This document shows, piece by piece, positions 21,307 to 64,000 of a stretch of DNA of 64,000 bases. The translations under genes and the position numbers were made by a program. The stretch is from Laetmonice hystrix (lineage: Eukaryota): NCBI GenBank assembly GCA_965235115.1, contig OZ249436.1, positions 31,622,001-31,686,000 on the forward strand, read 5' to 3'. Below the pieces are notes generated by a model, which was not told where the DNA came from, did not search any database, and saw only the letters and a program-made list of their open reading frames with translations. Position 1 is the first letter of the stretch; each line of letters opens with the position of its first letter.

Positions 21307-22877
21307 TGAGAACAAACACACCCCAATTTAATCATTACATATGGAAAATGATGTCATTCTGAAACATCTTCTGTAAGAAACTATGAGCAGACCTAGGGGA
21401 TCGGCTCTTGTGTACATACATTGATAGGAGTGCACGTAAAGCCGCAAGGACCGTGGTCGTAAACGTGCAATGTTAACATGTCTGTATGAGGCCTGAGGCA
21501 GAAAGACGCCACATTTGGACATCAAAGAGAGAAAAGAAATTATTACACGGCGAGTGTACATCTATACCGTTCAAAACGGATATAGAAACGCTTTGTATAC
21601 TGATATGAAAACGAAAAGAGCTGCTTCGAAAGTGTCTATTTATTTTGGACAAACACCAATAATCAGTTCGTTGAGCCCCAAGTGCAATGAACCCGTCAAC
21701 CCACGGCATCTATTCAGTGGGAAGTTGGAGTTTTGATCGCCGCCGCTCAAGGACGTCACCACAACGAAGCCCGCCTCGTATACCCGCCGGCGATCTATAG
21801 CACTGCTCTGAGAAACGAGAGTCACTTCGCAGCCATGAGGAACCGAACGAAAATGGCGGCGCAACTTGGCTGCGTGGTAGAAACCTGCCGCGGGCTGGCA
21901 AGTTGGCAACTCTTTGTGGCCGACACTTCTCTACTATTGTTGACGGATACCGTATGGGAAAGTTTGTGCGCGATCCGCCACTACAAGGACAAAGACAAAG
22001 TCTTTGAGTTTTGCTACAGGCTGCTGCTGCAGCTTTCAGAGTCACGTTCTCTAGAAATGCACCGGCTGTGGATACGTGAATGTATCGACTGCGCCTGTAG
22101 ACCAGTCCTGTTGACGAGAACCAGCAGTCATACCACAGCCAAGAGTGACGGCTCAAGCAGCGCCATGCTGTTTGCGTCGGCCCTTCCACTTTAATTTCAA
22201 TTATTGGCCGCACAGCGCGCTGCCTCAATCTTCCCGCATTCAATACATTGACGATTACCCGATTTCTTATTGAATCGGCGCGCCAATATCAGTTGGTCTG
22301 TTGCACAAGGGATATGGACTTGATGACATTTGCAGACCCCCCCCCATCCCCATCTACACACGGCTGACTTCGTCACATAAAATTATGTCGCTCAGAGTAA
22401 ATGGTACATTAATTAACGCTGTTTTCTTGTCAGTAGATGAAGGAATTGCGAAAAAGTTTCCTCAAGTGGGACGTTCAGTGTTGGCTGACGTCTGTTCATA
22501 CTCTCCCATGTTTACTAACTCGTTACTAATCTCATGATGTCCATGGCTAATGGCTTCGCTTGCTGAAACGTTAAAGATTGATAACCAAAAGTTTTAGGTC
22601 AATAAACCCGTCTGTCAGTCTCTGCTTGAATCAAAATAGACTTCGGGGTTAGACATAGCCGGGCCTTTCAAGTTGGTGTTGGGGGAAGTGCACTATCCCC
22701 ATTTACATCATTACTTTTAACCGCCCGTTGTAACTTATTAGGCATTCTGTTGTAACGGGTAGGCTCGAGTTTCTGACGGCATGGACGTGTGTGGTATGTG
22801 TGGGCGCGCGCCAAGTTCAGTCCGTCAGGGTGCACGTGGTCTGATGTGAGTGAAACATTCGCCCACGCATCTACTCT

Positions 22878-25260
22878 ACAGGTTCGGACTATACCCGCCT
22901 CCACATTCCATCTACACTATAGGCTCGGACTTCCCGCCTCCACATTCCATCTACACTATAGGCTCGGACTTCCCGCCTCCACATTCCATCTACACTATAG
23001 GCTCGGACTCCCCGCCTCCACATTCCATCTACTCTATAGGCTCGGACTTCCCGCCTCCACATTACATCTACTCTATAGGCTCGGACTCCCCGCCTCCACA
23101 TTCCATCTACACTATAGGCTCGGACTTCCCGCCTCCACATTCCATCTACACTATAGGCTCGGACTCCCCGCCTCCACATTACATCTATACACTATAGGCT
23201 CGGACTTCCCGCCTCCACATTACATCTATACACTATAGGCTCGGACTTCCCGCCTCCACATTCCATCTACACTATAGGCTCGGACTTCCCGCCTCCACAT
23301 TACATCTACTCTATAAGCTCGGACTTCCCGCCTCCACATTCCATCTACACTATAGGCTCGGACTTCCCGCCTCCACATTCCATCTACACTATAGGCTCGG
23401 ACTCCCCGCCTCCACATTACATCTATACACTATAGGCTCGGACTTCCCGCCTCCACATTACATCTATACACTATAGGCTCGGACTTCCCGCCTCCACATT
23501 CCATCTACACTATAGGCTCGGACTTCCCGCCTCCACATTACATCTACACTATAGGCTCGGACTTCCCGCCTCCACATTACATCTACACTATAGGCTCGGA
23601 CTTCCTGCCTCCACATTACATCTATACACTATAGGCTCGGACTTCCCGCCTCCAAATTACATCTACACTATAGGCTCGGACTTCCCGCCTCCACATTCCA
23701 TCTACACTATAGGCTTGGACTTCCCGCCTCCACATTCCATCTACTCTATAGGCTCGGACTCCCCGCCTTCACTTTACATCTACACTATAGGCTCGGACTT
23801 CCCGCCTCCACATTACATCTACACTATAGGCTCGGACTTCCCGCCTCCACATTACATCTACACTATAGGCTCGGACTTCCCGCCTCCACATTCCATCTAC
23901 ACTATAGGCTCGGACTTCCCGCCTCCACATTCCATCTACACTATAGGCTCGGACTCCCCGCCTCCACATTCCATCTACACTATAGGCTCGGACTTCCCGC
24001 CTCCACATTCCATCTACACTATAGGCTCGGACTCCCCGCCTCCACATTCCATCTACTCTAGAGGCTCGGACTTCCCGCCTCCACATTACATCTACACTAT
24101 AGGCTTGGACTTCCCGCCTCCACATTCCATCTACTCTATAGGCTCGAACTTCCTGCCTCTACATTACGTCTACACTATAGGCTCGGACTTCCCGCCTCCA
24201 CATTCCATCTACACTACAGGCTCGGACTTCCCGCCTCCACATTCCATCTACACTATAGGCTCGGACTTCCCGCCTCCACATTACATCTACACTATAGGCT
24301 TGGACTTCCCGCCTCCACATTCCATCTACTCTATAGGCTCGAACTTCCTGCCTCTACATTACGTCTACACTATAGGCTCGGACTTCCCGCCTCCACATGA
24401 CATCTACACTATAGGCTCGGACTTCCCGCCTCCACATTCCGTCTACACTATAGGCTCGGACTTCCCGCCTCCACTTTACATCTACACTATAGGCTGGGAC
24501 TTCCCGCCTCCACATTACATCTACACTATAGGCTCGGACTTCCCGCCTCCACATTCCATCTACTCTATAGGCTCGGACTTCCCGCCTCCACATTACGTCT
24601 ACACTATAGGCTCGGACTCCCCGCCTCCACATTCCATCTACACTATAGGCTCGGACTTCCCGCCTCCACATCCCAGCTACTCTATAGGCTCGGACTTCCC
24701 TCCTCCACATTCCATCTACTCTATAGGCTCGGACTTCCCTCCTCCACATCCCATCTACTCTATAGGCTCGGACTTCCCGCCTTCAAATTACATCTACACT
24801 ATAGGCTCGGACTCCCCGCCTCCACATTCCATCTACTCTATAGGCTCGGACTTCCCTCCTCCACATCCCAGCTACTCTATAGGCTCGGACTTCCCGCCTC
24901 CACATTACGTCTACTCTATAGGCTCGGACTTCCCGCCTCCACATTACATCTACTCTATAAGCTCGGACTTCCCGCCTCCACATTCCATCTACACTATAGG
25001 CTCGGACTTCCCGCCTCCACATTACATCTACTCTATAGGCTCGGACTTCCCGCCTCCACATTACATCTACTCTATAGGCTCGGACTTCCTGCCTCTACAT
25101 TACATCTACTCTATAGGCTCGGACTTCCCGCCTCCACATTACATCTACACTATAGGCTCGGACTTCCCGCCTCCACATTCCATCTACTCTATAGGCTCGG
25201 ACTTCCCGCCTCCACATTACATCTACACTATAGGCTCGGACTTCCCGCCTCCACATTATA
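22878..25260. repeat. 39-bp minisatellite, about 60 copies
   Basis: ctataggctcggacttcccgcctccacattccatctaca unit; occasional 41-bp variants. Confidence 0.97.
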
Positions 25261-25928
25261 CATGCTCAATAACATTCGCATTGTTTGCAGAACTCGGCCC
25301 CAGCTTTTATCTTCACTTTGATGGAATCACTAAATAGTAGCCAGCCGCGTCTGTGCATTGCGTCTGAATTATTCAACGATTGCAATTAGGCTACGACTCG
25401 ATCCTTTTAAATCTCAATTCAGTGGGAAAGGTAAAAACTGATTGGCCACATGGTCGGGACGCTATATCTTAATAGTTTAACAGAGGCCGATTGCCGTGAT
25501 ACATTAGCAGAGGCTGATCGCTCGGATACTTTAAACGTTAAAGTGGGATTCTGACCGGAAGTGACGTTACATCAGGCCATCTCGTATGGTAGATTAGTTC
25601 CGGGTTCATATAGCCTACCTTTACGTGTAATTATATAACACATTCATTTACACATAATATCCTCTAGTACCAAAAAAGGTTAGCAATAAGCGACTAGGAA
25701 GACAAATCCGGTAATTGGGGTTTTAGGGAAGTTCATACCTAAATATAACAGAGTTGGAGGTCAATGCGGTCCAGACATTATGAGAGAGAAGGGCAGAGAA
25801 CATGTATCTAGTTCTCTCCTCGCCTTTTTTACCACTATAGAGCTGACCATTTCTGGACAGAAAGTCACTGTGTGTCGGCCTACACATAATTCGTTAAAGT
25901 GTTGTGTCAGTTTACATAATTAGAGCTC

Positions 25929-40882: not shown

Positions 40883-43271
40883 CCCCACCAAAAGCATTAT
40901 ATCTTAAACACCTATATAGGCAGGATGCCTTTGTTATTGGGCCGTCTAACCTTTGCGATATGGATGCATCTCTAAACTTGCTCATTTCTAATGCTGAAAA
41001 ATAGTATGTATAGCATGCATTCATGAATGTAGCATTATTACATGCCCTCTTTAGGTGTGTTAATCTAGGTCGTTATTATATGGAGCTAAGGTCAATCGCA
41101 TATTATATGTGCAGGAGGTGTAATTTTGTGGAGAGCCCCCCCCCCCTCCCCCATATACCGCATCACGCAGTATATTGTGAAGGGTGATCCGAACACGGAT
41201 TGGAATCTTGGTGTCCAAGTCCTAATTGGTGCAGCTTGCCAACCACGCCGCCGGGACACATGCAGGTAGGTGGTCAGTGGGGGGACAATGGGCCCCTACC
41301 CCCGGTCACCCCGGTCTGTTCTCTCGCCACTGCATCATTGGCCGCCGCCCTAATTGTCCCGCCTAATGTCCCTTAATAATATATGAATATTGCAGCATGA
41401 TTCCGGGTAGCATTTGCCATTTGCAACAAGCATGGTGGGACAGCGACGTGAGGCTGCTCCCCAACCAGCCCGAGGTACTGTGGTACGTGTGTGTTTGTAT
41501 ATATATGTACATACAGACTAACACAGCCGGCTGGTGCCAGCGCCACGTGGGTATACCATATACATCGAATGGTGGATATCAGACCCTCCCGTCATGGGAC
41601 TCCCCTACAGATCAGATGTGTCAACTTTAGTTTTACCCTTATACTAACAAGGTTTCCAAAACTATGGTTGAAAATTCTTCTCTTCACGAGTTGAGCAGTG
41701 ATAAATCAAGCACGACATGATGGGCCTGAGTCTATTTAATTGCGTAATACACATCCTGCATGGTACGGTTTTTCTTATTCTCATGAGAATCTCACAGCCA
41801 GAGAACCGCCTCGGGGCCGCACGCCAAAAAGGTGCGTATGGAAGGGGGAAGGCCCGGATTGAGGGTGCTTTCTTGACCATTCATATTTCCATTTGGGTTC
41901 AAACCCGGATTGTGGGCCGGGTTTTCGCGGAAAGTTAACACTTGGCTTATCAGCAAATACATGTATAACACTTAAAAGGCGTTCCGGTATAGTCCTCCCT
42001 GCAAGGGGGTTTGTCGCACCCCTATCGAGACAGGAGCGACGGGAGGGACACCGCTGTGCATTTCTAGTTGTTCCGCAATTTGTGTTAACGTCCTGGAGAA
42101 ACAGGGAAAAATCGCGTGTCCTAGTAACCCAGCCCTATGGAACGGTACCACTTGGCGCCACCCCAATTCATTAAAAAGATGCGCACGATATAGACATATT
42201 CATTTCACATTATTAGTCTGCAGTACATCTTCTTTTTTCGTCTTCCTAATTAAATATACGTAACATGGCGCATAGGCTCTACGCAGTGGGCTGCAGGCCC
42301 GTTCCCTATAGGCCACTAAAAAGTAGGCAATAAAACAAATAGGCCAAAAATGACGGTATCCCCTTAACACGTTCCCAAAGCTTCGTACCACTTGTGTACC
42401 CCTATACTATAATGATTTACAACACCTCTAAATAGTGTTAACATGAAATGGACTCTTTAAATGATGTTGCTTTGTCTATGTTGTCATTCCATATCACATT
42501 TTTAGTCACAAGACAAGTTTCCCCCCGCCATTATTTTCTTGTCCTTTCTGTAATGTCTAACCCTTTACAAAGTCCACGGAATGAGTGTAGGCGAGATTAC
42601 ATTAACCAAAGGGTATGCTCTGGTGAATAAACCGAAACATCAGAGGTAGTTTCTCAACCCTATAAGGCGGATCCACACTGAGGGATCAATAGTTAACGTG
42701 TATTACCACTACACTGTAGTAAACGATGGACACTTTGTCCCATTTCTTGTACCTGCAGATCATGAAAACGGTTGCCGCTTGAGAAAGTGAATATTACAAA
42801 GATATCAAGATTAAGAAGACCAAAATGAACGGCCAACCTTTACGTCAGTCCCGATCATGTCTCACAACATAGGACCCTCACTCAAGCACAGAAACTTTGC
42901 CGTCGGCTTTCATGGCCTTTTTTTATACGATATAATGTGATTGCTATGTAGTAGGGGTAGCTTACGTGTTAAACCCTATTGGCAATTCTAAAGATCGTCT
43001 TCTAGGCTTCCAATAATATTACAATTTCTAACATTGAGACAGAGATAGACCTACGAAATCCTTGAGAGGATCTATTCTATACCCGGGGGCTGACTGGGAA
43101 ACTGCATTTGGGAGTTCCAGATTCATGACAAAGAGTCTCATGGAAAATCTTTGGTAGCTAATTCACAGTTTACCTTTACCGGAGCCTTGCGGACGGTTCC
43201 ACCATCAATTGGTTTATTCTATTAATTTCAATAAATGGGACTTGAGAGGGAAACAAACAAAAAACACGTAC

Positions 43272-43463
43272 CTGGCCGCGGTATTCGTAGCCCAGGTCGG
43301 ACGCGACCTCACGGGCTATCTGCTCCCCGCCCGGGATGTGAACGGCCCATTCATTGGTGAAGTGTCCCTGAGAGCGGGCGTGTACGGCAGTCGTGCCCGC
43401 ATCATCCAGCAAACAAGCGCATACCACCAGCAGCAGCAACCACAACCCCTGGGTGCCAACCAT
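43272..43463 (-). CDS. PCSK1: Prohormone convertase 1/3-like, coding exon 1 (signal peptide + start of prodomain)
   Basis: ATG at 43463; MVGTQGLWLLLLVVCAC hydrophobic signal; HFTNEWAVHIPGG..A..VA..LGY S8 prodomain motif; ends RGQ|GTACGT donor, phase 0, 192 nt. Confidence 0.9.
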
Positions 43464-43776
43464 ACTACGCACCCACCGCTTCGCCAACCGATCAAACTCC
43501 AAAACTGGATCAGGTCAGCATACGGGCATATAGGTCTCGTCCGATAAAATAACTGTTGGAGCGCAACTTTGGTCAACAGAGAGCAAAGAGGGTAGCGCTG
43601 TAGAAACTTTGCCAATGTACGGCAAGTCCGTTGTCCTTGTCCAAGAAGCAAGAGGGCGTTGTAAGGCGGTAAATAAGACAGTTCTGCGTGGCACGTTACG
43701 CCCTGTACTTGCTTCCCGGCTCCATGGGGGGAAGTAGAACCCGACGACAGATGTCACTCGAGTTAAGAGCAGCTTC

Positions 43777-47072: not shown

Positions 47073-47245
47073 CAGGGCCGTAATTCAGAGGGGGGGGGGG
47101 GGTTATGGGGGCTTAACACCCCCCCCCCTCAATATTTCAGTGTTGCCTAATAACTACTTTACCAGGGAGAACTTTGGATCTGTTCGCCGAGCCGCCTCAA
47201 TAATTCCATAGCCCCCTCAATAATTTGATGGAAATTACGGGCCTG
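47073..47245. mobile_element. CAGGG-terminal MITE with 5-bp TSD
   Basis: cagggccgtaatt/aattacgggcctg; flanks gaaag/taaag. Confidence 0.65.
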
Positions 47246-47862
47246 TAAAGGAAAGTCGCTCAGACACTCAGATTGTATGTCATACATGATTTAGATTTTG
47301 TTGGTAAGTTACCCAGAATCGTGTCCACTTGCCACCACTCGGTCATCTTGGTTTAAAATGTAAACAGTATAACCCTAGTCAGCAGCGAAGCGGAGAACTG
47401 ACTACAGGTAGCCGGGTCCCCAGCTCTATATTAACTTCGTATATAGAGCTTGGTGTAGGCCAATCGAAGCGAGCATTGTGATTGGCCCATCGAAAACATG
47501 GACGCAAACCAGGTATAGTTCCGTACCCTCCGTATTTCTCCAACAAGATACAAATATTTTCGTCAATCCCTTTAAAATACAAGTGTTAAATGTCCTCGCT
47601 TTTCTGGATGTAAACATAGCGTCACCAGTCCCCACACCTGCAACGGTCTGCATACGCAGTCGCATGTTGGCCACTCCCGGCCACGCTCCAAGCAGAAGTC
47701 GATCACTCTGTTAACGCCGGAGGCGGAAGTGATTAGCTCCGAGGCGGAAGTGCTTGGAGATCACCACTTCCGTTTTACAGCTTTCTGTTAGCCATCACCG
47801 GGCCTAACATCAAGCGGATGCGTATGGTAAGGCACCGGGGACCAGGCTATGACTACAGGCTG

Positions 47863-50690: not shown

Positions 50691-53325
50691 TATGTTATAC
50701 AAATTAGGGGTATATGTTTAAGCATGCGTTTGTGTAGTATCTCCAGTAAGATTTATTTAAGAATTAAAGAAAAGGGGACGCTCTCTCGAAAAGAGAAGGC
50801 ACCGCAAAATCCCGGACATTTTAGATGTTGAAAAAAAAATCTGTTACTCACGCAGAGTTAATAGAACCAAAAGGGGAGACAGGTCCGGGAAGATGCGGAC
50901 GTATAAGATACCAATGGGTAGGTTGGCACATGCGGACGTAATTAAGATACCAATGGGTAGGTTGGCACATGCGGACGCTGGTTGACTTTAAGTGGTTCAG
51001 GGATCAACAATCAATCATTAATGCCGTATCGATCTCGACAAGGATATCCTGTGAACCAGAGTCCCGTCGGGTATCCGGGACGAGCGGCGGGTACCACCCC
51101 CCCCCCCCTCCCACCGGAGCCCAAGCCGGGTTGAAATGGGCACTGGTTGTGGTCAGACGACCTGTAAATGTCCGTCGCCATCTCCGTACGGGTTGAGACC
51201 AGTGGTACCATTTGACAGTAATGCCTGACGTCCTGGTATGGATCCCGGACTTCAGTTATGCCGTTAATAGCCGAGCATGTCCTTTGTTGTGGACGCCAAG
51301 GTTGGTCGGTGTTATCAGTTCATGTTATGTGGAGGCCGGTTGATATACGACAGGCTGGACGTCAATATAACCCAATAGAGAGAGAGAATGGTACCTGGCA
51401 ACACTCCACATACCGCACATGGATTAGTTACCCTTTTTGTGAATATTAGGTTTTGTGATTAAAGCCGTTATTCTAGTGTCCGCCACATTTTCAATGCATG
51501 TCAGGAAAGTTATCAGTCATTTAGCATTATTATTCAAACAAAATTATGAAGTCCATTATAGAAAATGTTCGGTGTTTCACCATCAGTTGTTACAGCATGC
51601 GTTCTGTAGCATTCTAACCCGCTGTCCAATTAGGGACTCAATTAGTAGAACTTAATTCATAAACTGCTGGACAGCTATAGGTTGAACAAAGCGATTGATA
51701 AAACGTTCTCTTGTATTTTGGCAATTGTTGACAGTGACACCCCATGCATAATCCTGTATGACACATCTATATAGTTGTAATAAAGATGCCCTTTAAAATG
51801 TGTAAATATATTTTATATTTATTCCGTCACAAGGATAATTGTATTGTGTTACATTCACCTAATATAGGAATGAGCTACCTACCACTTGTAAAATAAAACT
51901 TAACTATGACAACAGATAATAAATATAAATATAAAGCGGAATGGCATTTTCGTTTGTTCTTCATAACATGTCGCAGTCCCTTCTTGCTATCACTTTTGGT
52001 CATACACAATAAAGCGCGCGTGTACTGAGATTTTCATACTTGAAACCATCGGCACTTATATTCAGTTCTCAGTTTTTCTCTGATAACAAACCACATAAAC
52101 TGATTACATAGAAACCAGCCCTTGCATAGCAATTCTCTTCTCAGAATATCGCATATAATTGACTTTTGTTTGCGTTGGTTGAAAGGAAGTGATCGGATCC
52201 GGGGCTTCTCGGTCTGTTATTGTGTTGAGGTTTCACTAATAATATTTCAACTACCGGTCCTAAGGTATCTCTTCAACTATAAGTAATTCTTACCATATCA
52301 CATTTCAGTGCGTCGTCGTCGGTCAGAATTAGAAATAGACCATACCATATATATTATATAATATAGTGTACGTAATTAGGTAGTTGACATGTATTTCGTG
52401 TATATGCATTAAAGCTTACTAGCTACACAAACACCGCCCGATATAACAAAACATTGTTTATGCATACGTCATTTGTCAACGTGTAAAACGTCTAGAAAAA
52501 TTGGTTCATGAGATACTTGACAGAACATGACGACACAAGGCAATACATCTTTTAGGTCAACGCTGCTGGAAAACCTTCTGTGATTAAAAAAAGGTGAAAT
52601 AAGACCGACAAAATACTCGGTCAGTCTCGGTTACTGACAGCATTGACAATGACCAATCATAGTCACGACAATTTTGTTCACATGCTTGTAAGATATCTCA
52701 TTAAACGGCAAACCCCGACTGACTTTGCCAAGTATTATTAGCATGGCGTGCTGGACTATAACTGGCATAATAAGGTTTGTCAGATTGCTATTCTCTTCAA
52801 AGGAAAACACCGTCCATGCCTACTGACCAATAATTAATATGCGGGCTTAAAAGTAACGATTCGAGACGAAAACGCCTCATCAACGGGACAAGGAGAATAC
52901 TTATCATTTCTCGAACCTGACTTTGACGTTCGAAAAACAGTTTCGTTTAGAAAAAAAACCCACCTCCTTAGTAATACACAGGGCAGTAAAGGTAAGATGG
53001 AATGTTCCTATTAGGTCTCTTTTCAACTCACACATACACACTAAGTCACACATACCAACCATTTCAGGAGCATCGTACACGGTTAGTTCTTAAAGTAAAT
53101 TAATTGTAATAACATAGTTCAGATCATTATGCCTACAGATTAAACCTATAACGTCGTTAACTACTTGTAAATCGGTGTTCTTTGCTTTGGTACCTTGGTA
53201 TATGTAGAAATATCCTAACAGTTCCGTCTGCAAGCCGGCTTTACCGTACCAAATCACTGACATTCAAGAAATGACTAGCTCTGATTGTATAACATCTGGT
53301 GGCCTTCTACAGAAGCGAGCAGCCA

Positions 53326-53862
53326 CTAAGTATTGGGCGATACGGGATTTGGTCTTGCAGCGGTCGGCCCACTTCGGTGCTCTTTGTCCAGATGCTCCTT
53401 CAGATATTGACTGTAGCGGAATCCCTCTCCACATATCGAACACAAGAAGCTGTTGATCTTGGTATGTACCGTAATGTGTGCCTTGAGATTATTGCTAGCC
53501 GTGAATCCCTTCCCGCAGTACTGACACTTGTACGGGTAGATTCCCTTGTGGGTGTTCATGTGCAGTTTGTGGCCTGACGCCGACGAGAACGTTTTGCCGC
53601 AGGTCGTACATGAGTAGGGCCTGGCCGGGCGGTCGCTCTGAAGGAACACCCGGCTCCGCTGCAGCGTGGCCGGCCAGACGTGGGGCGACATGTCGAAGGG
53701 GATGTATCGGTTGGTCGATTCGCCCTTCAGGACGAGCGCCGTCTGTTGCATCATGTGGGAAGCGAGAAGCTGAGCCATGTTCTCGTCACGGCCGCTAGAT
53801 GTCGCGTCGGATCGCTTGATGGTGTCGGCGTCGCGTGGAGTCGCAGCATGGAATGTTTCGTT
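53326..53862 (-). CDS. Alternative terminal exon D: three C2H2 zinc fingers
   Basis: ttcgactttgcatatttccag|AAC phase-0 acceptor; CTTC..HMNTH, CQYC..HITVH, CSIC..HLDKEH; own stop. Confidence 0.87.
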   Translation of the reverse strand, partial: NETFHAATPRDADTIKRSDATSSGRDENMAQLLASHMMQQTALVLKGESTNRYIPFDMSPHVWPATLQRSRVFLQSDRPARPYSCTTCGKTFSSASGHKLHMNTHKGIYPYKCQYCGKGFTASNNLKAHITVHTKINSFLCSICGEGFRYSQYLKEHLDKEHRSGPTAARPNPVSPNT

Positions 53863-55596
53863 CTGGAAATATGCAAAGTCGAAGTGGACATGAATCAACG
53901 CGGGTTTAGAATAACCTTAAAACGTTAACATTTTCAGTTGTCAGAAACCGATAGGGTGGCTGGGCCGTTTTGTACTCACTCTCAAAATAGTTGCATTAAT
54001 GCCCGCTATGCCTCCTCTCATAGCCCCTTTCCCCTCCCCTCGACTTCCTATTAATTTTATTGGATTCCTCTTGCCGCCGATAGCTACACCCCTATATAAA
54101 CACAAGGGAAGGTGTAGACGTTAATTTAATAACCTGAGTAAAATTCTACTTTTCTTCTACTACTTACATGGAAATTGCCTGCTTCAATTTAACTTTTCCA
54201 TATACTACTTAAAAAGACAGGCCTCCAAGTGGGCAGAGAAAAAAAGTTTTTTTTAAAGGTTCTCATTTCCAAAATATACAGCGTTTATACCGTCTACTAC
54301 ATTTCTCTTATACATGTACTTACATACTGTTCAAATTCTCTCCATAATATACACCCATCATGCATCGTGCCGCCCACCAGACCATATAATTCACGGCTTA
54401 TAGTAAATGCTTCATGGTATTGGTAGGGTATGTTTTGAGGGCAACCATTCCGATTCTTATGCCGCTGCCTTCACTAAATATGCCCCCAAAAACGTGCCAG
54501 GTAAACCGTTAAGCAGCACGAATCATCCCCTGAATTGCCGAAAGTCTCAAAAACAAATATTTTCGCGACAATTTGCGAAGGAAAATAAAGGTCCCAGACC
54601 GGAAATATAGGTTTTAACGGTGCTTTGAACCAAATAAAGGAAATATAATGCCATAAAAATAAAGGTTTAAAAAGGTTTTACTTGGAAGGCTGCAAAATAA
54701 GTTTCATGAACTTATATAAGAAGATGGCTAATGTACAAAATAACACAAAACACGAATGAGGAGAGGTCATTCAATAGTTGCCAAAAATATAACAAAAAGA
54801 CCGACCGTTTTGCATACATTTACATGTACATGTACTGAAATGGTCACTTTATTATAAGTTCACGCAAAATCAAAGTCGACCATCCTTGACAAAGCATATT
54901 CCTTTTCGCTGGAATATGCTTTGTATATGTATTTGTTGAACGGGGTTTTCCAATGAGGTCCTTGGCAAAGACCTGTTGCAGTGAGTGATTTAACAAAATG
55001 AGGGTTCTGGCTTCTAAGACAGAAAGAAAAGAAAACTATTAAATGCCCATATTTATTTGGTAAAGCAAACGGAAATATCGTAGAACATGACTAGCCAGCG
55101 TATTCATTGAAAAGGTCTGGGCAATACATAATCACTCCATATTAATTGCCCAAAAGACTATGATTAAGGTGCTTCTAGCGACATATCAAACAACAGCTGA
55201 CCATTAGCCGATGAAGTTATTGAAGTAAGCCTATTGATAAGGTTGATTAAAGTTCGCTCTAACAACTGCACATCTTCTTTTGTATTGGGTAAACTATGAC
55301 TTGATCCATACGAATGATGCTATCTCAGCGAGAATGACACGGTGTACACTGCCATAAAGCTATAACCATGAACGGATATACACAGTTGATAAAGTGAGTT
55401 GTCTATAAAAAGAGTTGCCGCCAAAGAGCGGAGAGGCTCTATCTATTTTGTACGTCAATGTCCACCCGACAGTTTATTATCCCTACTATTCTGTCCCTTT
55501 CAATTTTTTTCTGTCATCAATGCATGTAATGATATATATTGTGGTTGAATGTTGACATCAGCTCTGATGCTCATTGAGTCCTTGCCCGGTTGTGTA

Positions 55597-56295
55597 TTAT
55601 TGTCTGGGTCCCTGGCGATCAGTGGCGCTGCACCTTGTTTCATCACTGTCGGCCGGGACACCTCGATCTGACTCAATTCTGGCCACTGACGTTTCTATAG
55701 AGATCACCTCGGTGGCTGACCGCGGATGTAATTCGAGACCTGTGGGGGCGCCACTGCACGGTTGTTGACACGATAACATGGCTAACGTGTCAATAAACGT
55801 GGCTTCGTCCGAGTGGCTCCTGTGTATGTGGGCCATCAGGTCCTTCTTGTACCTGAACTCCTTTTGACAGAAGCCACACTTGAATTCAAAAACATTCATA
55901 TGAGATGTGAGGTGACCGCGCAGATTCGACTTGCACGTGAAACCCTTTCCACAGAATTGACATTTCAGAGGATACACGCCCTTGTGGCGGTCAACGTGCA
56001 GCTTGTGTCCAACCACGGACGAAAACCGCTTGTCGCAAATACTGCAAACAAACGGTCGTACTTTGGAACCGTGCGAGTCCCAACCCTTGGACATAACGTT
56101 TTGCCACGGAGTCTGCCGCACGCACGCACTATGCGGGCTTCTCGGAGATTGCGTTTGATCATCTGTTTCACTTTTCCGACTCGTTCTGGACCGGTGGTCC
56201 CGAATCCGTTCCACTTGACCGGCCAGGGTCTGAGCGTGGACATGAGCATCGTTTAGAAATGGCGATGTGTGGAGCCTGGGTTTGGTGTCCACCAT
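55597..56295 (-). CDS. Alternative terminal exon C: three C2H2 zinc fingers
   Basis: ctctgttccattggttgcag|ATG phase-0 acceptor; CSIC..HVDRH, CQFC..HLTSH, CGFC..HIHRSH; stop, then AATAAA (minus) at 55473-55478. Confidence 0.85.
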   Translation of the reverse strand: MVDTKPRLHTSPFLNDAHVHAQTLAGQVERIRDHRSRTSRKSETDDQTQSPRSPHSACVRQTPWQNVMSKGWDSHGSKVRPFVCSICDKRFSSVVGHKLHVDRHKGVYPLKCQFCGKGFTCKSNLRGHLTSHMNVFEFKCGFCQKEFRYKKDLMAHIHRSHSDEATFIDTLAMLSCQQPCSGAPTGLELHPRSATEVISIETSVARIESDRGVPADSDETRCSATDRQGPRQ

Positions 56296-57814: not shown

Positions 57815-58240
57815 TCAGACTGACATCTCCCTGATGTCCTCCCCGATGTCCCTACTAAAGGCAGGTGGCGGCAGACCTTGCCTGCGGGAGTTACACTGGG
57901 AGCGTGCTGGCCGGCTGCCGTCGGAACCACTCCAGTGTCGGGTCCAGATCCGCCACACTGTCGTCTTGCCCAGACAGAAGAGGTCAGCCGTCTGGGTGAG
58001 CAGCCCGAATGGAACACTCCCCGACGTCAGGTTGCCTCCATTCTCAACGATATGCGCAACTACAATCCGCCTCTCCTCTTGAGTTGTGGCCTTCACCTCC
58101 CGACCTCTGATATTGATGCGCGGTCCATAGCGAACTCCCACCGCGGCGGTGGCGGCAGACGGCTTGACTGTAAGGTTGGAGGCAGAGCCATAGAACGACA
58201 AAGGAGCAGGTCTCTGTATCCATCCCGCGGTAGACTGAGT
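57815..58240 (-). CDS. Alternative terminal exon B: paired/Tc1-transposase-like HTH
   Basis: ttgtttctggaccttgacag|ACT phase-0 acceptor; TQSTAGW...RINIRGRE...ERRIVVAHIVENGGNLTSGSVPFGLLTQTADLFCLGKTTVWRIW; aligns without gaps to exon A; own stop. Confidence 0.72.
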   Translation of the reverse strand, partial: TQSTAGWIQRPAPLSFYGSASNLTVKPSAATAAVGVRYGPRINIRGREVKATTQEERRIVVAHIVENGGNLTSGSVPFGLLTQTADLFCLGKTTVWRIWTRHWSGSDGSRPARSQCNSRRQGLPPPAFSRDIGEDIREMSV

Positions 58241-58920: not shown

Positions 58921-59195
58921 AAGCCTGCCATACACTATACAATTCCCAGTCGGCAGCAAATCACACGCCCCGGCACACTATACGACTCGAGTCATAAGCC
59001 CCCTCACACTTTGAGTTTGAGATCCGACTGTGGGTGACTGTGATCCGATTCAAAATTCGAATCGACTGTTTGGGGCCTTGCGACCCATTCCGATCGTCGT
59101 AGGCGAGTCGTAGGCGAGTCATAAGCAAGTCATAAGCGGGTCGTAAGCTCCAGAATGCGATCGGATCATAAGAAAATTGTATAGTGTGTGGGGAG
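58921..59195. mobile_element. Harbinger-like MITE remnant
   Basis: ccatacactatacaatt / aattgtatagtgtgtgg inverted pair with internal gagtcgtaggc repeats. Confidence 0.5.
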
Positions 59196-59324
59196 AACGA
59201 CGTTGAAAAAACTCCTCAGAGGACTGCTGTGTTTTATCAGTTAATACTTGATGTCTATCCTGACACCCAGGTTTAGTACCGGGTTAAGTCTTTCTGGTAG
59301 AGCCTTAACACCTTCAGGATTAAT

Positions 59325-59747
59325 TCAGGAATAGTTCCACGGCTTGTCCCTGTTTGTACCTTGTGAGCAGTTCATATTTTCTTGCTCCAACATTGACTCT
59401 TGTGGAGAGCAGTGCTCGTTTGCAGTCCGGCTGCAAGAATGGCTTTCCACTGGGATTCCATGATCCCCGATATTGACCCTACCAAGACCAGAGACACTTC
59501 GGTGTCTCCAGTACGGGGTCCAGATGTTCCAAATGGTTGCCTTGCTGACCCGGTAAATATTGGAGACTTTGGTAAGGGTGCCGTTCGGGGCCTTCCCAGT
59601 CCGTGGGTTTCCCCCCATGTCGATTATTTGCTGAATGATGTTGACGCGCTCCTTGGTGGACACAACCCCGATCCGGCGACCCTTTTGGTTGACTTTGGAT
59701 GTGCCGTCCCCTGTGGCTGGGGGCCACCTGCACTGCCACCCCATGGT
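59325..59747 (-). CDS. Alternative terminal exon A: paired/Tc1-transposase-like HTH
   Basis: ctttttgtcttcccaccag|ACC phase-0 acceptor; TMGWQ...KVNQKGRR...ERVNIIQQIIDMGGNPRTGKAPNGTLTKVSNIYRVSKATIWNIW; own stop codon. Confidence 0.72.
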   Translation of the reverse strand, partial: TMGWQCRWPPATGDGTSKVNQKGRRIGVVSTKERVNIIQQIIDMGGNPRTGKAPNGTLTKVSNIYRVSKATIWNIWTPYWRHRSVSGLGRVNIGDHGIPVESHSCSRTANEHCSPQESMLEQENMNCSQGTNRDKPWNYS

Positions 59748-61249
59748 CTGGTGGGAAGACAAAAAGTTCTCTTTTAGTTTGTGTGCGGTGGGTTCGGTAA
59801 GCAATGGTCGAGGGAAAGATCAGCCTGCTGGCAGCACACATTCCAGATGAACGTCAGCCTTGGCTAGTACTTCGGCCAGTCTCACTTCCTGCAGAAATGC
59901 TGGCTTACTTGGGATTGTTCCAATAAGTTCAGTCTTGGGGAACAAAATACCGGACAAAAAGAAACGGAACAAAAAGAACTAAGTTATCAGTTTTAATTGA
60001 TTGACAGCCCACAGAAAAACTGCTCTTTTTTCAAATGACATTTGGAAAATTATGTTAGTTCTTGTGTCACTTCAAAATTAATATAACACATCTGCTATTT
60101 CACGTCTAAGTATTGTAAAGGTGTTTTTTTAAAAATACAGGTTAACTGATAAACGTAACAGTAAACCTGAAACTCAATTCACCAGATGTGCAGTCATAGG
60201 AACATTACAGCCAGCCACCTTAGAATTAAAAAAAGCCAAACGTGCACGTTGTTTTCATTCCAGTTAATCATAGAAATTTATCTATATTTCTAATGACGGG
60301 CAACTCTCCTTCCTTAATCTCCCTTTTGAAGAATTGTTTGCCCTGTTTTTATATTAACTCTGCATGTAATCTCTCTGCCCTGGCAACATCACTCTATAAA
60401 AACGATGGCTTGGCAAGTTGTTGGATTACCGCTATTCAGTGCAAATTGTGAATATTTCTAGTGAAGCACATTTTTTAACAATTTACTTTGTATGACTCCT
60501 GCCACTAGATGTGACACACATATAATTTATCAAAATAAGTACCTTTGTCAGGTGACTGTGAGAATATAACCCTTCAATGACTGCAACCACTGGTTATAAA
60601 AGAGAGACTTATGGTCTGTGTTACATAAATGACTTCTCCAAAAGACGGAAAAGACAGGCCATAGTCGTTGTTATATAAATGCAACAGCTGCTCCTGGTAG
60701 TGAAGAAAGTGCACCCACTGACCCCTGTTCCTGGCTAAAAAGAAATAAATATCTTTCCCACTGGCCATTTCTGGGAGGGAAACATATACCTACTAGTCCT
60801 TCCTAGATGTTTACCACATGAACCACAAGCTCATTCTTAGTAAACCACCCTTGCCATCACTTACATTCTTACATTTTACACTTAAAACTCAGAAAGTTGG
60901 AGCTGTTTGAAATTATTACCTAGTACAAAATTGGAGCACATACTAAAGCTTCTTAAAATGCAGTCATACCCCAAGTTAGTCAGTCCTGAATAGCCTATGA
61001 TGGTAGGCCTAAACGTCAACACGACGTCACAAACATTACCTAAAAAAACTGTGAAAAAGTATGTACATTCATGAGTATAGACACTGCAGTTCTGGAGATA
61101 GTGTAAAGGGCAGATTTCCTTTTAAGTAGATTATTTATATATTGTGTCACACACACCAAAAGAGAAACCTCCATAGAGCACCAGAAAAAAAAAGGATAAA
61201 AGCATAAAGACACCAAGTACCAAGACGTCAGAAAAGATGGTAATCTCAC

Positions 61250-61900
61250 CTGAGTGTGTCCTCCAGGTAAGGGCGAGGAGGGTATGGAGGAGCCTGGAGA
61301 GAAACTGGAGGTTCCGCTGTGTCCAGGCCAGGACATCTGTCCTAACTTAGACTCGTGTGTATTATGTAGAGTGTCACTGTCATCCACTGAATACATGCCA
61401 CCGTGTGGTGGCTCGGATAATCCAAAAGTTTGTTGTATATATTGATCCTGATCACCAGCATCATCCGAGTCTAGGATCTCTTCCTTTATAACAATAGGGT
61501 CTTCTGTTGTGTTTTGATCATCCCGTAACCCAGCCCGCCTTTTTCCATTGTCAGTCCTGTGAAACTCGCTAGGTTCATGCCAGGATCGCTTGCGGAATGA
61601 CGTTTCATTAGCAATATGATCACTAGTTGGTGTTGATGAAGAAGATGATAGCCTTGCTGGCACGACTTTCTGTTCATTGTCTGCAACAACGGACCTGCAC
61701 ATTGAACTAAGGTCCACCCGGCCTTCCTTACTGATCGTTTCATTGATCTTGACCAGAAAGACATCCTGTTTATCAACAGTTATTCCCAACAAACCGTCAA
61801 TGGTGAATTCTAAGTCATAACCGAGGCCATTTTTACAGAGAACCGTGATGGCCTCGGTCAGTAAGGCTTTGATGCGGTCCTGATCTGTGTTTACTACCAT
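61250..61900 (-). CDS. Common coding exon of a multi-isoform DNA-binding protein gene (unassigned ~55-aa N-terminal domain + low-complexity linker)
   Basis: Acceptor ttttttcag at 61953, ATG 61900, 217 open codons MVVNTDQDRIKALLTEAITVLCKNGL...PGGHTQ, donor CAG|GTGAGA phase 0; IKEE motif at 61478-61489. Confidence 0.85.
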
Positions 61901-64000
61901 CTTCACAACTCGTTGTCTCTCCAATTATACCAATCAATCAACCTCTCATATTCTGAAAAAATAAATACATTAATATTCAGTAAAAGTGCCACTGCAGAGA
62001 TTTTTTTAAAGTAAAAATTTGATCCAAACATCATTAGATTACCCTTAACTCGAGTTTTCTCCCAATTAAAAATCTTAAAATACACAATTTTGCACTTTAT
62101 TTTACTTCCCACAAATTGATTTTGGTGCCTGCCAAAGTTCACAGCTGTACATTGCATCAATCAGACTGTATGTCTAGAGAATGCAATATTTAATTTTCAC
62201 CCGCCCATGTGATGGCTCGGGGGTTATTGAAGTCAAAGTGTCCGTCCCGGAAGTCAATGAGGCTTCCCCCGTCCTCTCCCGCCGTCCTGGCCCAGCCGAG
62301 TGACCGAGAGCGAGCGCTGGCCTGAGCACGATCACACTGATGTCAGTCGAGACTAAGCATGGCTGTAACACAGTGCAGTGCAGGGGGTTTCCACGTATCC
62401 CGGAAACCCTTTCCCCCTTTTGGACAGTTTGGTAAAAAAAAGGGGATGTAAAATCAGGCCTGATTTTAAGATGTGAACGATCGTTTTGTTCGCGTGTCAT
62501 TCACCTAAAATGGAAAGGCCGAGAACGAAAATCCGTTCACCTGCAAATTTTGCAATCCTGAGATTAACAGGTGAACGATCGTTTCGTTTGCCTGTCGTTT
62601 ACCTAAAATAAATAACGGGAATAAAAAATGGGTTACGCAAATTTCCCCTAATTTCAGGCCTGTAAAATGCATTATTTTTTAACCAAAGGAAACTTTCATA
62701 TTTCCAAACAAGATGTCCCGAAATTGCTTTATTTGATGTCTTTCTTTTTAATTTTCCAGAGCATGGCCTAATGGCCATCTCTGGAGTACCGAAACTTTGC
62801 AAACCCCCGTAAAAAATTTCTAGATATGCCAGTGAATTGTTATCAGTTTCAACTGCCTCTGGGGTTTCAGTATTTTCCATCCTCAAAAGACTTGTCATAC
62901 CTTATTTCTGTATAATTTCATAATAAAAGATGTATCTTAAAAGTACTTCTGGAGGATGTGTCCTCGTACAGGATATATATGTGGCATCTGTAAATAGGTG
63001 AGGAATTTTTGGATTCCCCAGGTTGGCAACACTGCTAACGTACTTGAGGTGGAGCTAAATTAGGCCACTTAAAATTAATAAATTGTTTTACATGGCCGGC
63101 CGCCTCAATTTTTTGGCGCCGCCTTGATTTTTTTATATTTTATATTTTTCAAAAAGTCCGTTTTTTTTCATCCCCAAAACCGTTAGAGATCGTCAGTGCA
63201 AGCGCACGCCGCGCACCATCTGTCGGTGGTGCATAAAACGAGTACCCGTGGTCGTTCAGAATATTGAGGACTCTATGTGCATATCTTTTGAAGCTTCAAT
63301 TGTTGGCTTTTTTAATGTTCAGTATTCTAGCTTTAAAATTTCTTGTTAAACCTAGTCTCCCACAGTTCTGTCAGGGTGTTACAGTTAAAGTGACCCTCAA
63401 GGTATAGAATGGTTGTACAAAATGTTGAGATATTGAGAAATTAAAAGTATTTTTCCAGTATTGGTGATCTCTGCTGTCCTTCTTCTTGTCGAGGAAAAAT
63501 ATAAAATATAAAATATAAAATGCCCTACTCACCAACATTTCAGAAGTTGGAGTCATGTAAAACAATTTATTAATTTTAAGTGGCCTTATGATCAATGTTC
63601 AAAAAATGAAGCGGCATATATTCAATTGTAATTGCTGAGGTCACTTCTGACAGGCCAGCCAACTTCCCCAGACACTCTGACCAACCAATGAAAACACTTT
63701 GACCAACCCCACCGGACACTCTGACCAACTGCCGGACACACTGACTTGCCGGATGCTCTGACCATCGGACGCACTGACTAGGATAAATCTGACGGCCCAT
63801 ACCATGGCCATGCCAATAGATGGTAATTTTGTCTTTTTGACATTTTCTATCATTTAGTATTTAGATATCTACACTAAGAAGACAAAGAGGGGCCCTTTGC
63901 ACTTTGTTGATCCCAAACCTAATCTGCTATAATGCTATGACCTATGTGTGAGCCTAGTATAATTAATATTATAGCTTTACCTTACAGTTACAATAATTGT

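Follow-up and report, generated by a model that had tools for sequence, protein, structure and literature searches.

Genes of the Tramtrack-group (TTK-type) BTB class, such as lola and mod(mdg4), and the genes headed by KRAB are the described systems that come closest to a gene found in Laetmonice hystrix, in a stretch of 64,000 nucleotides (contig OZ249436.1, positions 31,622,001 to 31,686,000; hereafter the window). The protein of this gene starts with a domain of 56 residues without a family name (61733..61900, minus strand), and this domain is the subject of the present study. As described in the accessible part of PMC11426971, the BTB domain of the TTK type is found in arthropods only, occurs in many isoforms with C2H2, helix-turn-helix (HTH) or Psq partners, and shows broad heteromeric binding; for TTK genes, hexamers and also trans-splicing have been reported. 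In the same part of that source, 17 of the 20 lola isoforms carry different C2H2 ends and mod(mdg4) has at least 30 isoforms. The KRAB-transposase fusions of tetrapods, in which KRAB is spliced to transposase-type DNA-binding domains, are described in the accessible part of 10.1101/2020.05.07.082677. Our literature searches found no description of an annelid N-terminal head module of the KRAB, SCAN, ZAD or TTK-BTB kind. Lineage-specific heads sit on expanded zinc-finger families, KRAB and SCAN in vertebrates, ZAD and (after PMC11426971) the TTK-type BTB in insects. KRAB brings about repression through TRIM28. ZAD, with four conserved zinc-binding cysteines, and SCAN, an all-helical domain of about 84 residues, are lineage-restricted N-terminal dimerisation modules that have expanded on clustered zinc-finger genes.

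The gene in the window is similar to the TTK-type BTB genes in its N-terminal domain on a constant part, its varied, in part putative, C-terminal DNA-binding ends, its overlapping partners and its lineage-specific expansion. However, no sequence relation to them is detectable, the domain has 56 residues instead of about 110, its species-named relatives are annelid, and its arrays of ends reach 85 exons. With the KRAB zinc-finger and KRAB-transposase proteins it shares a small N-terminal module on its own exon ahead of zinc-finger or transposase-type ends, the splice being in part putative here. It differs from them by the lack of a KRAB match, by a predicted alpha-beta-beta order and by alternative short ends for each gene in place of one long finger array. 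As with ZAD and SCAN, the N-terminal module belongs to expanded zinc-finger genes, but it has one conserved cysteine instead of the four of ZAD, and a long predicted hairpin where SCAN is all-helical. The overall result indicated that this is a real domain family without a name, which probably heads a large family of annelid transcription factors. Its role would be of a known kind, built from unrelated parts, and by analogy oligomerisation is plausible.

The N-terminal domain and its family

The minus strand of 61733-61900 is translated from a methionine into 56 residues without a stop, the same residues that had been quoted in a preliminary description of the window. The sharp boundary proposed there was confirmed by the comparison with the close relative P0066, in which 55 of 56 residues are identical inside the domain and 98 of 161 in the linker behind it; conservation ends at about residue 56. 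AlphaFold2, run with 30 paralogues as the alignment, predicts a helix (residues 4-25) and a beta-hairpin of two strands (31-42 and 46-57) with a mean pLDDT of 89.3. The preliminary description had also read an amphipathic helix and alternating strands from the single sequence, and this stood in part. The helical moment of the single sequence is not significant (P=0.18), but the conservation in the family exhibits the pattern at positions 10, 13, 14, 18 and 20-22. Strand 1 alternates in the single sequence (P=0.006), whereas the alternation of strand 2 is not clean and not significant (P=0.27), since both sides of VFLV are hydrophobic. The helix and strand pattern is clear at the family level only. 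Across 178 distinct domains, 22 of the 56 positions hold a hydrophobic residue in no less than 94% of cases, among them the adjacent strand positions 37-38 and 47-50. Cys22 is invariant in all 286 distinct homologous domains, Asp43 is kept in 285 and Leu14 in 283. All 30 paralogues have a net charge of zero or below, with a mean of –3. Two copies of the domain are found in 10 of 318 homologous proteins, some of them only about 6 residues apart. A four-copy complex prediction, in which the alignment was unused and the fold uncertain, gave a score of 0.01 and speaks neither for nor against self-association.

The genome (627 Mb) contains 37 matches to the domain and, over three queries, 38 loci, with 31 on contig C1; the counts of 37 and 38 are lower bounds. 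A profile of the 30 paralogues matched 1,121 proteins among 7,992 scored candidates. The same profile, searched against 1.84 billion representatives of clusters at 50% identity, matched 1,861 at E<=0.001 and 1,393 at 1e-10. Conserved homologues therefore exist, at no fewer than 38 loci and in these 1,861 representatives, a point on which the proposal of a real domain had been made to depend beforehand. Species names were carried by two of the 30 proteins looked up, and most of the domain matches are without one. Among the top-ranked matches listed, six relatives have a species name, from Lamellibrachia satsuma (2), Ridgeia piscesae (2), Helobdella robusta and Paralvinella palmiformis, all of which we take to be annelids. 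No description of the domain was found in the literature, and subscription journals, InterPro/PANTHER or supplements may hold a name. The sole motif match in the literature, in the accessible part of an MDA5 protocol, is unrelated to the domain. The transposon-derived factors of Capitella are listed without this domain in the accessible part of PMC10027918.

A second family member lies at G000:C1:31,691,601 on the plus strand (L010), about 5.6 kb past the window end. It and the present gene are arranged head-to-head, and 7.7 kb separate it from the start codon of the latter. Elsewhere on C1, other family members face each other in a similar way.

The preliminary description had not recognised the domain as BTB, KRAB, SCAN or ZAD, and this lack of assignment was borne out. 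None of the 30 members reached the cut-off of any Pfam family. At E<=1, eight families were matched by any of them, and no row for BTB, KRAB, SCAN or ZAD was among these. The best Pfam rows were STN1_2, obtained for 8 of 30 members (E=0.004), and RelB-like (E=0.04); both were below the cut-off and were judged to be chance helix matches. ZAD was excluded because the column table has one conserved cysteine (C22), and SCAN because two strands are predicted in the 56 residues. In NCBIfam nothing was found under E=0.05, and the best match of a PDB sequence search had E=0.8. The ESM Atlas returned one cluster without a name at 0.75. With the monomer model, the best values were E=0.51 for Foldseek against the PDB, Z 4.2 for the VIA structural comparison with 48,161 chains, and E=0.097 for a viral structure library. 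Blank fold searches with such a small monomer model are no proof of a new fold.

Shared exon and end exons

The shared (constant) exon occupies 61250..61952 on the minus strand, the strand of all features of this gene. It is preceded by an acceptor AG at 61954-61953; from the start codon at 61900 it holds 217 codons, and it ends in a phase-0 donor, CAG/GTGAGA. In one contig of the sequencing run X4, the match breaks off at 61953 and the contig continues for another 77 letters. An upstream open reading frame (ORF) of three codons (Met-Arg-Gly-stop, 61938-61949, minus strand) is present in the exon ahead of the main start.

Isoforms with different DNA-binding exons had been expected in the preliminary description, and the shared exon does stand ahead of four such exons, two HTH-like and two with C2H2 fingers, one of them with a join seen in a contig. 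All four lie downstream on the same strand, each with a phase-0 acceptor and a stop at its end. The observed joint runs from 61250 to 59747 in one X4 contig, with 95 letters on its shorter side and the frame kept. It delimits a GT-AG intron of 1,502 nt (59748..61249, minus strand; joint 59747/61250, ends CT..AC). The coding part of end exon 1 (59325..59747, minus strand) is HTH-like, in frame with the shared exon and terminated by a stop, and gives a weak Pfam match to DUF7769 (E=0.0015, below the cut-off). We infer that X4 is RNA because its cover is patchy and contains a GT-AG joint. In runs X1-X3 introns are covered just like exons, and these runs behave like DNA. Stretches without X4 cover were not counted as evidence.

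Candidate end exon 2 (57815..58240, minus strand) is a second HTH-like exon, 33% identical to end exon 1 over 63 amino acids, and an X4 contig covers 57826-58025. Candidate end exons 3 (55597..56295, minus strand) and 4 (53326..53862, minus strand) each encode three C2H2 fingers (Pfam zf-C2H2). The former has a second phase-0 acceptor at 56229 and is covered by X4 contigs at 55858-56210 and 55402-55679, the latter by contigs at 53082-53454 and in further 3' stretches to 52438. The joins of these three exons are putative: the X4 contig matches listed cover the exons in part and include no join to the shared exon. The HTH type of end exons 1 and 2 occurs at three places in the genome, two here and one among the finger exons behind another paralogue. 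A constant exon followed by several same-strand, same-phase, stop-ending DNA-binding exons is the layout of lola and mod(mdg4), and it is the layout found here.

The other paralogues have a comparable arrangement. Within 9 kb downstream of the 37 paralogues, candidate end exons of four types (domain X, domain Y, HTH and finger) number 51 on the same strand versus one on the opposite strand. At least one is found behind 24 of the 37 and at least two behind 14. By a crude donor score, 23 of 30 shared exons have their best donor in phase 0. The DNA-binding ends are very short and mostly have two fingers. Behind the copy at C1:29,172,074, there are 85 plus-strand zinc-finger ORFs versus one on the minus strand over 76 kb. 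The strongest acceptor is in phase 0 in 79 of the 85, and a median of 7 residues separates the last finger from the stop. The joins of this array are putative, none being seen in contigs. The copy at C1:19,946,215 is followed by two finger exons, one domain X exon and about 17 domain Y exons, one of which is partial. Behind other paralogues come Myb/SANT, DUF3504/QRICH1, a Brinker/CENP-B-type HTH and a piggyBac-type finger as candidate joins, some with a phase-0 acceptor and some with none found; one DUF3504 fragment has a phase-1 acceptor only.

Domain X, of about 130 residues, is found behind four paralogues (L036:4170-4715, L044:7283-7879, L032:473-1051 and L049:568-1131), with opposite-strand copies in L040 and L041. 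It has no Pfam match and matches in the ESM Atlas at lead level only. Domain Y has 210 residues and forms the tandem of about 17 exons at G000:C1:19,918,500-19,938,100 (L036, L037, L067); copies also lie behind several other paralogues (L074, L107, L108, L111, L114, L115). It has no Pfam match either. Its AlphaFold2 model has a pLDDT of 87, and the top structural rows are SIRV1 ORF119 (Z 6.9), the Rep of Vientovirus (6.5) and a Helitron transposase (6.2). Since all rows are under Z 8 and mixed with general ferredoxin-like folds, an HUH/Rep-like fold may be taken as a lead only. Two related Arg/Glu-rich, probably helical ORFs without a Pfam match stand behind two paralogues (L040:7074-8054 and L032:5183-5815) and are a possible further type of end exon. 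The ORFs at L107:7503-8216 (minus strand) and L103:1944-3098 (plus strand), also behind paralogues, have phase-0 acceptors and no Pfam match, and the second presumably resembles a pogo/CENP-B-type HTH.

Fusions of the domain to DNA-binding partners are present in single ORFs of other organisms: with C2H2 fingers in P0127, P0162, P0229, P0300 and P0316, with BEN in P0131 (a Helobdella gene model), with Psq in P0133 and P0135, with domain X in P0145 and P0193, and with domain Y in P0141. In one database cluster, a read-through form and a spliced form diverge at one codon boundary.

The linker

The segment between the domain and the donor had been described as a Ser/acidic low-complexity linker with basic patches and a SUMO consensus. 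The bias exists but is mild (32% Ser, Asp or Glu), and the linker is not simple low-complexity because of this mild bias and its 61% conservation in P0066. All three short motifs were found where they had been reported. RKRS at residue 103 (61583..61594, minus strand), of a motif class enriched in the family, and KRR at residue 120 (61535..61543, minus strand) are candidate nuclear localisation signals. IKEE at residue 138 (61478..61489, minus strand), with acidic residues after it, is a candidate SUMO-consensus site. The psi-K-x-E pattern occurs in the linkers of 26 of 30 paralogues, compared with a mean of 3.1 and a maximum of 8 in shuffles, and in 75 of 80 database homologues (shuffle mean 7.9, maximum 19). 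With an acidic tail it occurs in 24 of 30 paralogues versus a shuffle mean of 1.0. Basic patches of the form K-[KR]-x-[KR] are found in 16 of 30 paralogues (shuffle mean 4.7) and in 54 of 80 database homologues (mean 11.9). A GCSxW motif occurs in 17 of 30 paralogue linkers and is absent from this gene. The linker motifs (psi-K-x-E, basic patches and GCSxW) are under selection, and the linker may have a role in SUMOylation and nuclear import.

Proposed role and rival explanations

We consider it fairly likely that the domain is a module for self-association, by which isoforms and paralogues that differ in their DNA-binding ends would assemble into homo- and hetero-oligomers. The basis of this proposal is the anatomy (an acidic surface, a hairpin hydrophobic on both faces, tandem doubles) and the analogy with the TTK-type BTB. 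In the predicted fold, the helix would cover one face of the doubly hydrophobic hairpin and a partner copy would bury the other. A partner is likely to be needed because one helix can cover one face only. The tandem doubles with short linkers also point to a self-packing unit. Because the domain is acidic or neutral in every paralogue of the profile, the end exons are probably the parts that read DNA. Alternative splicing from the one phase-0 donor would give each transcript a single end exon, and the linker would supply nuclear import and SUMO attachment. The oligomers would combine units of two or three fingers or an HTH into longer DNA-reading surfaces. The gain may lie there, since an end with two or three fingers or with a single HTH recognises a short site. 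The 51:1 strand bias needs only cis-splicing.

More tentatively, the family may have arisen independently of lola and the TTK-type BTB, in a similar manner and on a larger scale. The domain would then hetero-oligomerise hundreds of isoforms from about 38 genes, and the constant exon would capture DNA-binding exons through one phase-0 site. The ends captured would comprise the DUF3504 of Cryptons, the piggyBac-type finger, the Brinker/CENP-B HTH and Psq, as well as two domains not described before, one of them with an HUH/Rep-like fold. In its anatomy the domain fills, for annelids, the slot that KRAB, SCAN, ZAD and the TTK-type BTB hold elsewhere, and it brings to light a large family of unannotated regulators, amounting to 1,861 clusters at 50% identity. 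The stand-alone two-finger ORFs would be explained as alternative ends of a few genes. With its 56 residues, the domain offers an easily expressed test of whether combinatorial DNA reading, by oligomerisation and swappable ends, arose twice from unrelated parts.

Several points weigh against the proposal of a self-association module with exchangeable ends. First, the evidence for self-association is indirect and consists of anatomy and analogy; KRAB likewise stands N-terminal to zinc fingers, yet it recruits a co-repressor. The coevolution analysis had an effective depth of 91, which is underpowered, and did not separate contacts within a chain from those between chains. Second, only one of this gene's four joins has been observed, in a single contig from the one run that we read as RNA. 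Among the database proteins, two isoforms of one gene were not found, only a genomic read-through as compared with one spliced form. Third, 13 of the 37 paralogues have none of the four end-exon types within 9 kb, with other DNA-binding domains by Pfam behind several of them. The tally of 51 to 1 is partly circular because the profiles of domains X and Y, HTH and fingers were built from some of the counted loci. In 302 of 318 homologous proteins the first copy of the domain begins no more than 30 residues from the N-terminus, a count inflated because many database matches are ORF calls from genomic DNA that start at the first Met of the exon.

The alternative that survives best, though we hold it to be rather unlikely, is that the domain is mainly a cofactor-recruiting effector like KRAB. 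It would fold against a co-repressor or chromatin factor, with self-association absent or secondary. The very high conservation among paralogues and between species (55 of 56 residues to P0066, invariant C22) fits one common partner, and the domain is small and acidic and comes together with a SUMO-consensus site. A likeness to transposase domains is seen in several partner exons, as in the KRAB-transposase fusions treated in the accessible part of 10.1101/2020.05.07.082677. On the other hand, the tandem doubles (10 of 318), the hairpin hydrophobic on both faces and the short ends favour oligomerisation. The two roles are not mutually exclusive.

It is improbable that the domain belongs to a known family as a fragment or relative that has diverged strongly; the most plausible candidate would be the N-terminal part of BTB, and a divergent BTB had been named beforehand as an example of a match that would refute the proposal. 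In this paralogue the order helix-G-x-x-D-strand-DG resembles by eye the start of a BTB domain, where the only local HHalign match also falls, and the position and partners are BTB-like. However, HHalign against 25 BTB domains of the same genome gave a probability of 0.7% over 21 columns (P=0.086), and no BTB match was obtained at E<=1 for the 30 members. The Asp behind the likeness is a minority state (position 30 is D in 29 of 178 domains versus T in 38). The domain is also half as long as BTB (56 residues against the 110 positions of PF00651), and its predicted strand layout differs, with one helix and two strands where BTB has a helical core.

Even less probable is a MADS-like dimer of helix and hairpin that itself contacts DNA. 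The MADS-box core has the same order of elements, and MEF2A and SEPALLATA3 were among the weak structural rows (Z 3.3, rmsd 4.0-4.1, 45-48 aligned residues; for MEF2A rmsd 4.0 and 48 aligned), at the level of unrelated rows. The MADS profile was compared because of these rows, and HHalign gave a probability of 0.2% for the MADS box (PF00319; three MADS sequences of this genome). Unlike the MADS core, which is basic, the domain has a charge of zero or below in all 30 paralogues, no basic N-terminal arm and a separate C-terminal DNA-binding domain. Finally, a real domain followed mostly by separate genes or transposon remains, with no isoform system, would agree with the lack of contig support for three of the four joins here and for every join of the array, with the transposon-like character of some neighbouring ORFs and with the phase-1 acceptor of the DUF3504 fragment, but it is made very improbable by the join that was seen, by the 51:1 strand bias, by phase 0 in 79 of 85 array ORFs, by an HTH type whose only three genome places are all downstream of family members, and by the single-ORF fusions in other organisms.

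Other features

Genes of Polinton-like elements were noted near two paralogues, namely an ORF of 1,484 amino acids resembling DNA polymerase B by eye (L043:1477-5928) and matches to A32 ATPase and integrase (L041:3-2297). In the window, an exon at 43176-43514 on the minus strand reads like a signal peptide with a furin/prohormone convertase prodomain and presumably belongs to the next gene downstream. A long tandem repeat with a period of 13 codons (39 nt), a strong negative GC skew and spurious long ORFs extends over 22,800-25,300. High-copy interspersed repeats are located at 47,200-47,850, 58,950-59,200 and 62,450-63,500, and the summed contig depth in the first of these reaches about 150,000-200,000.
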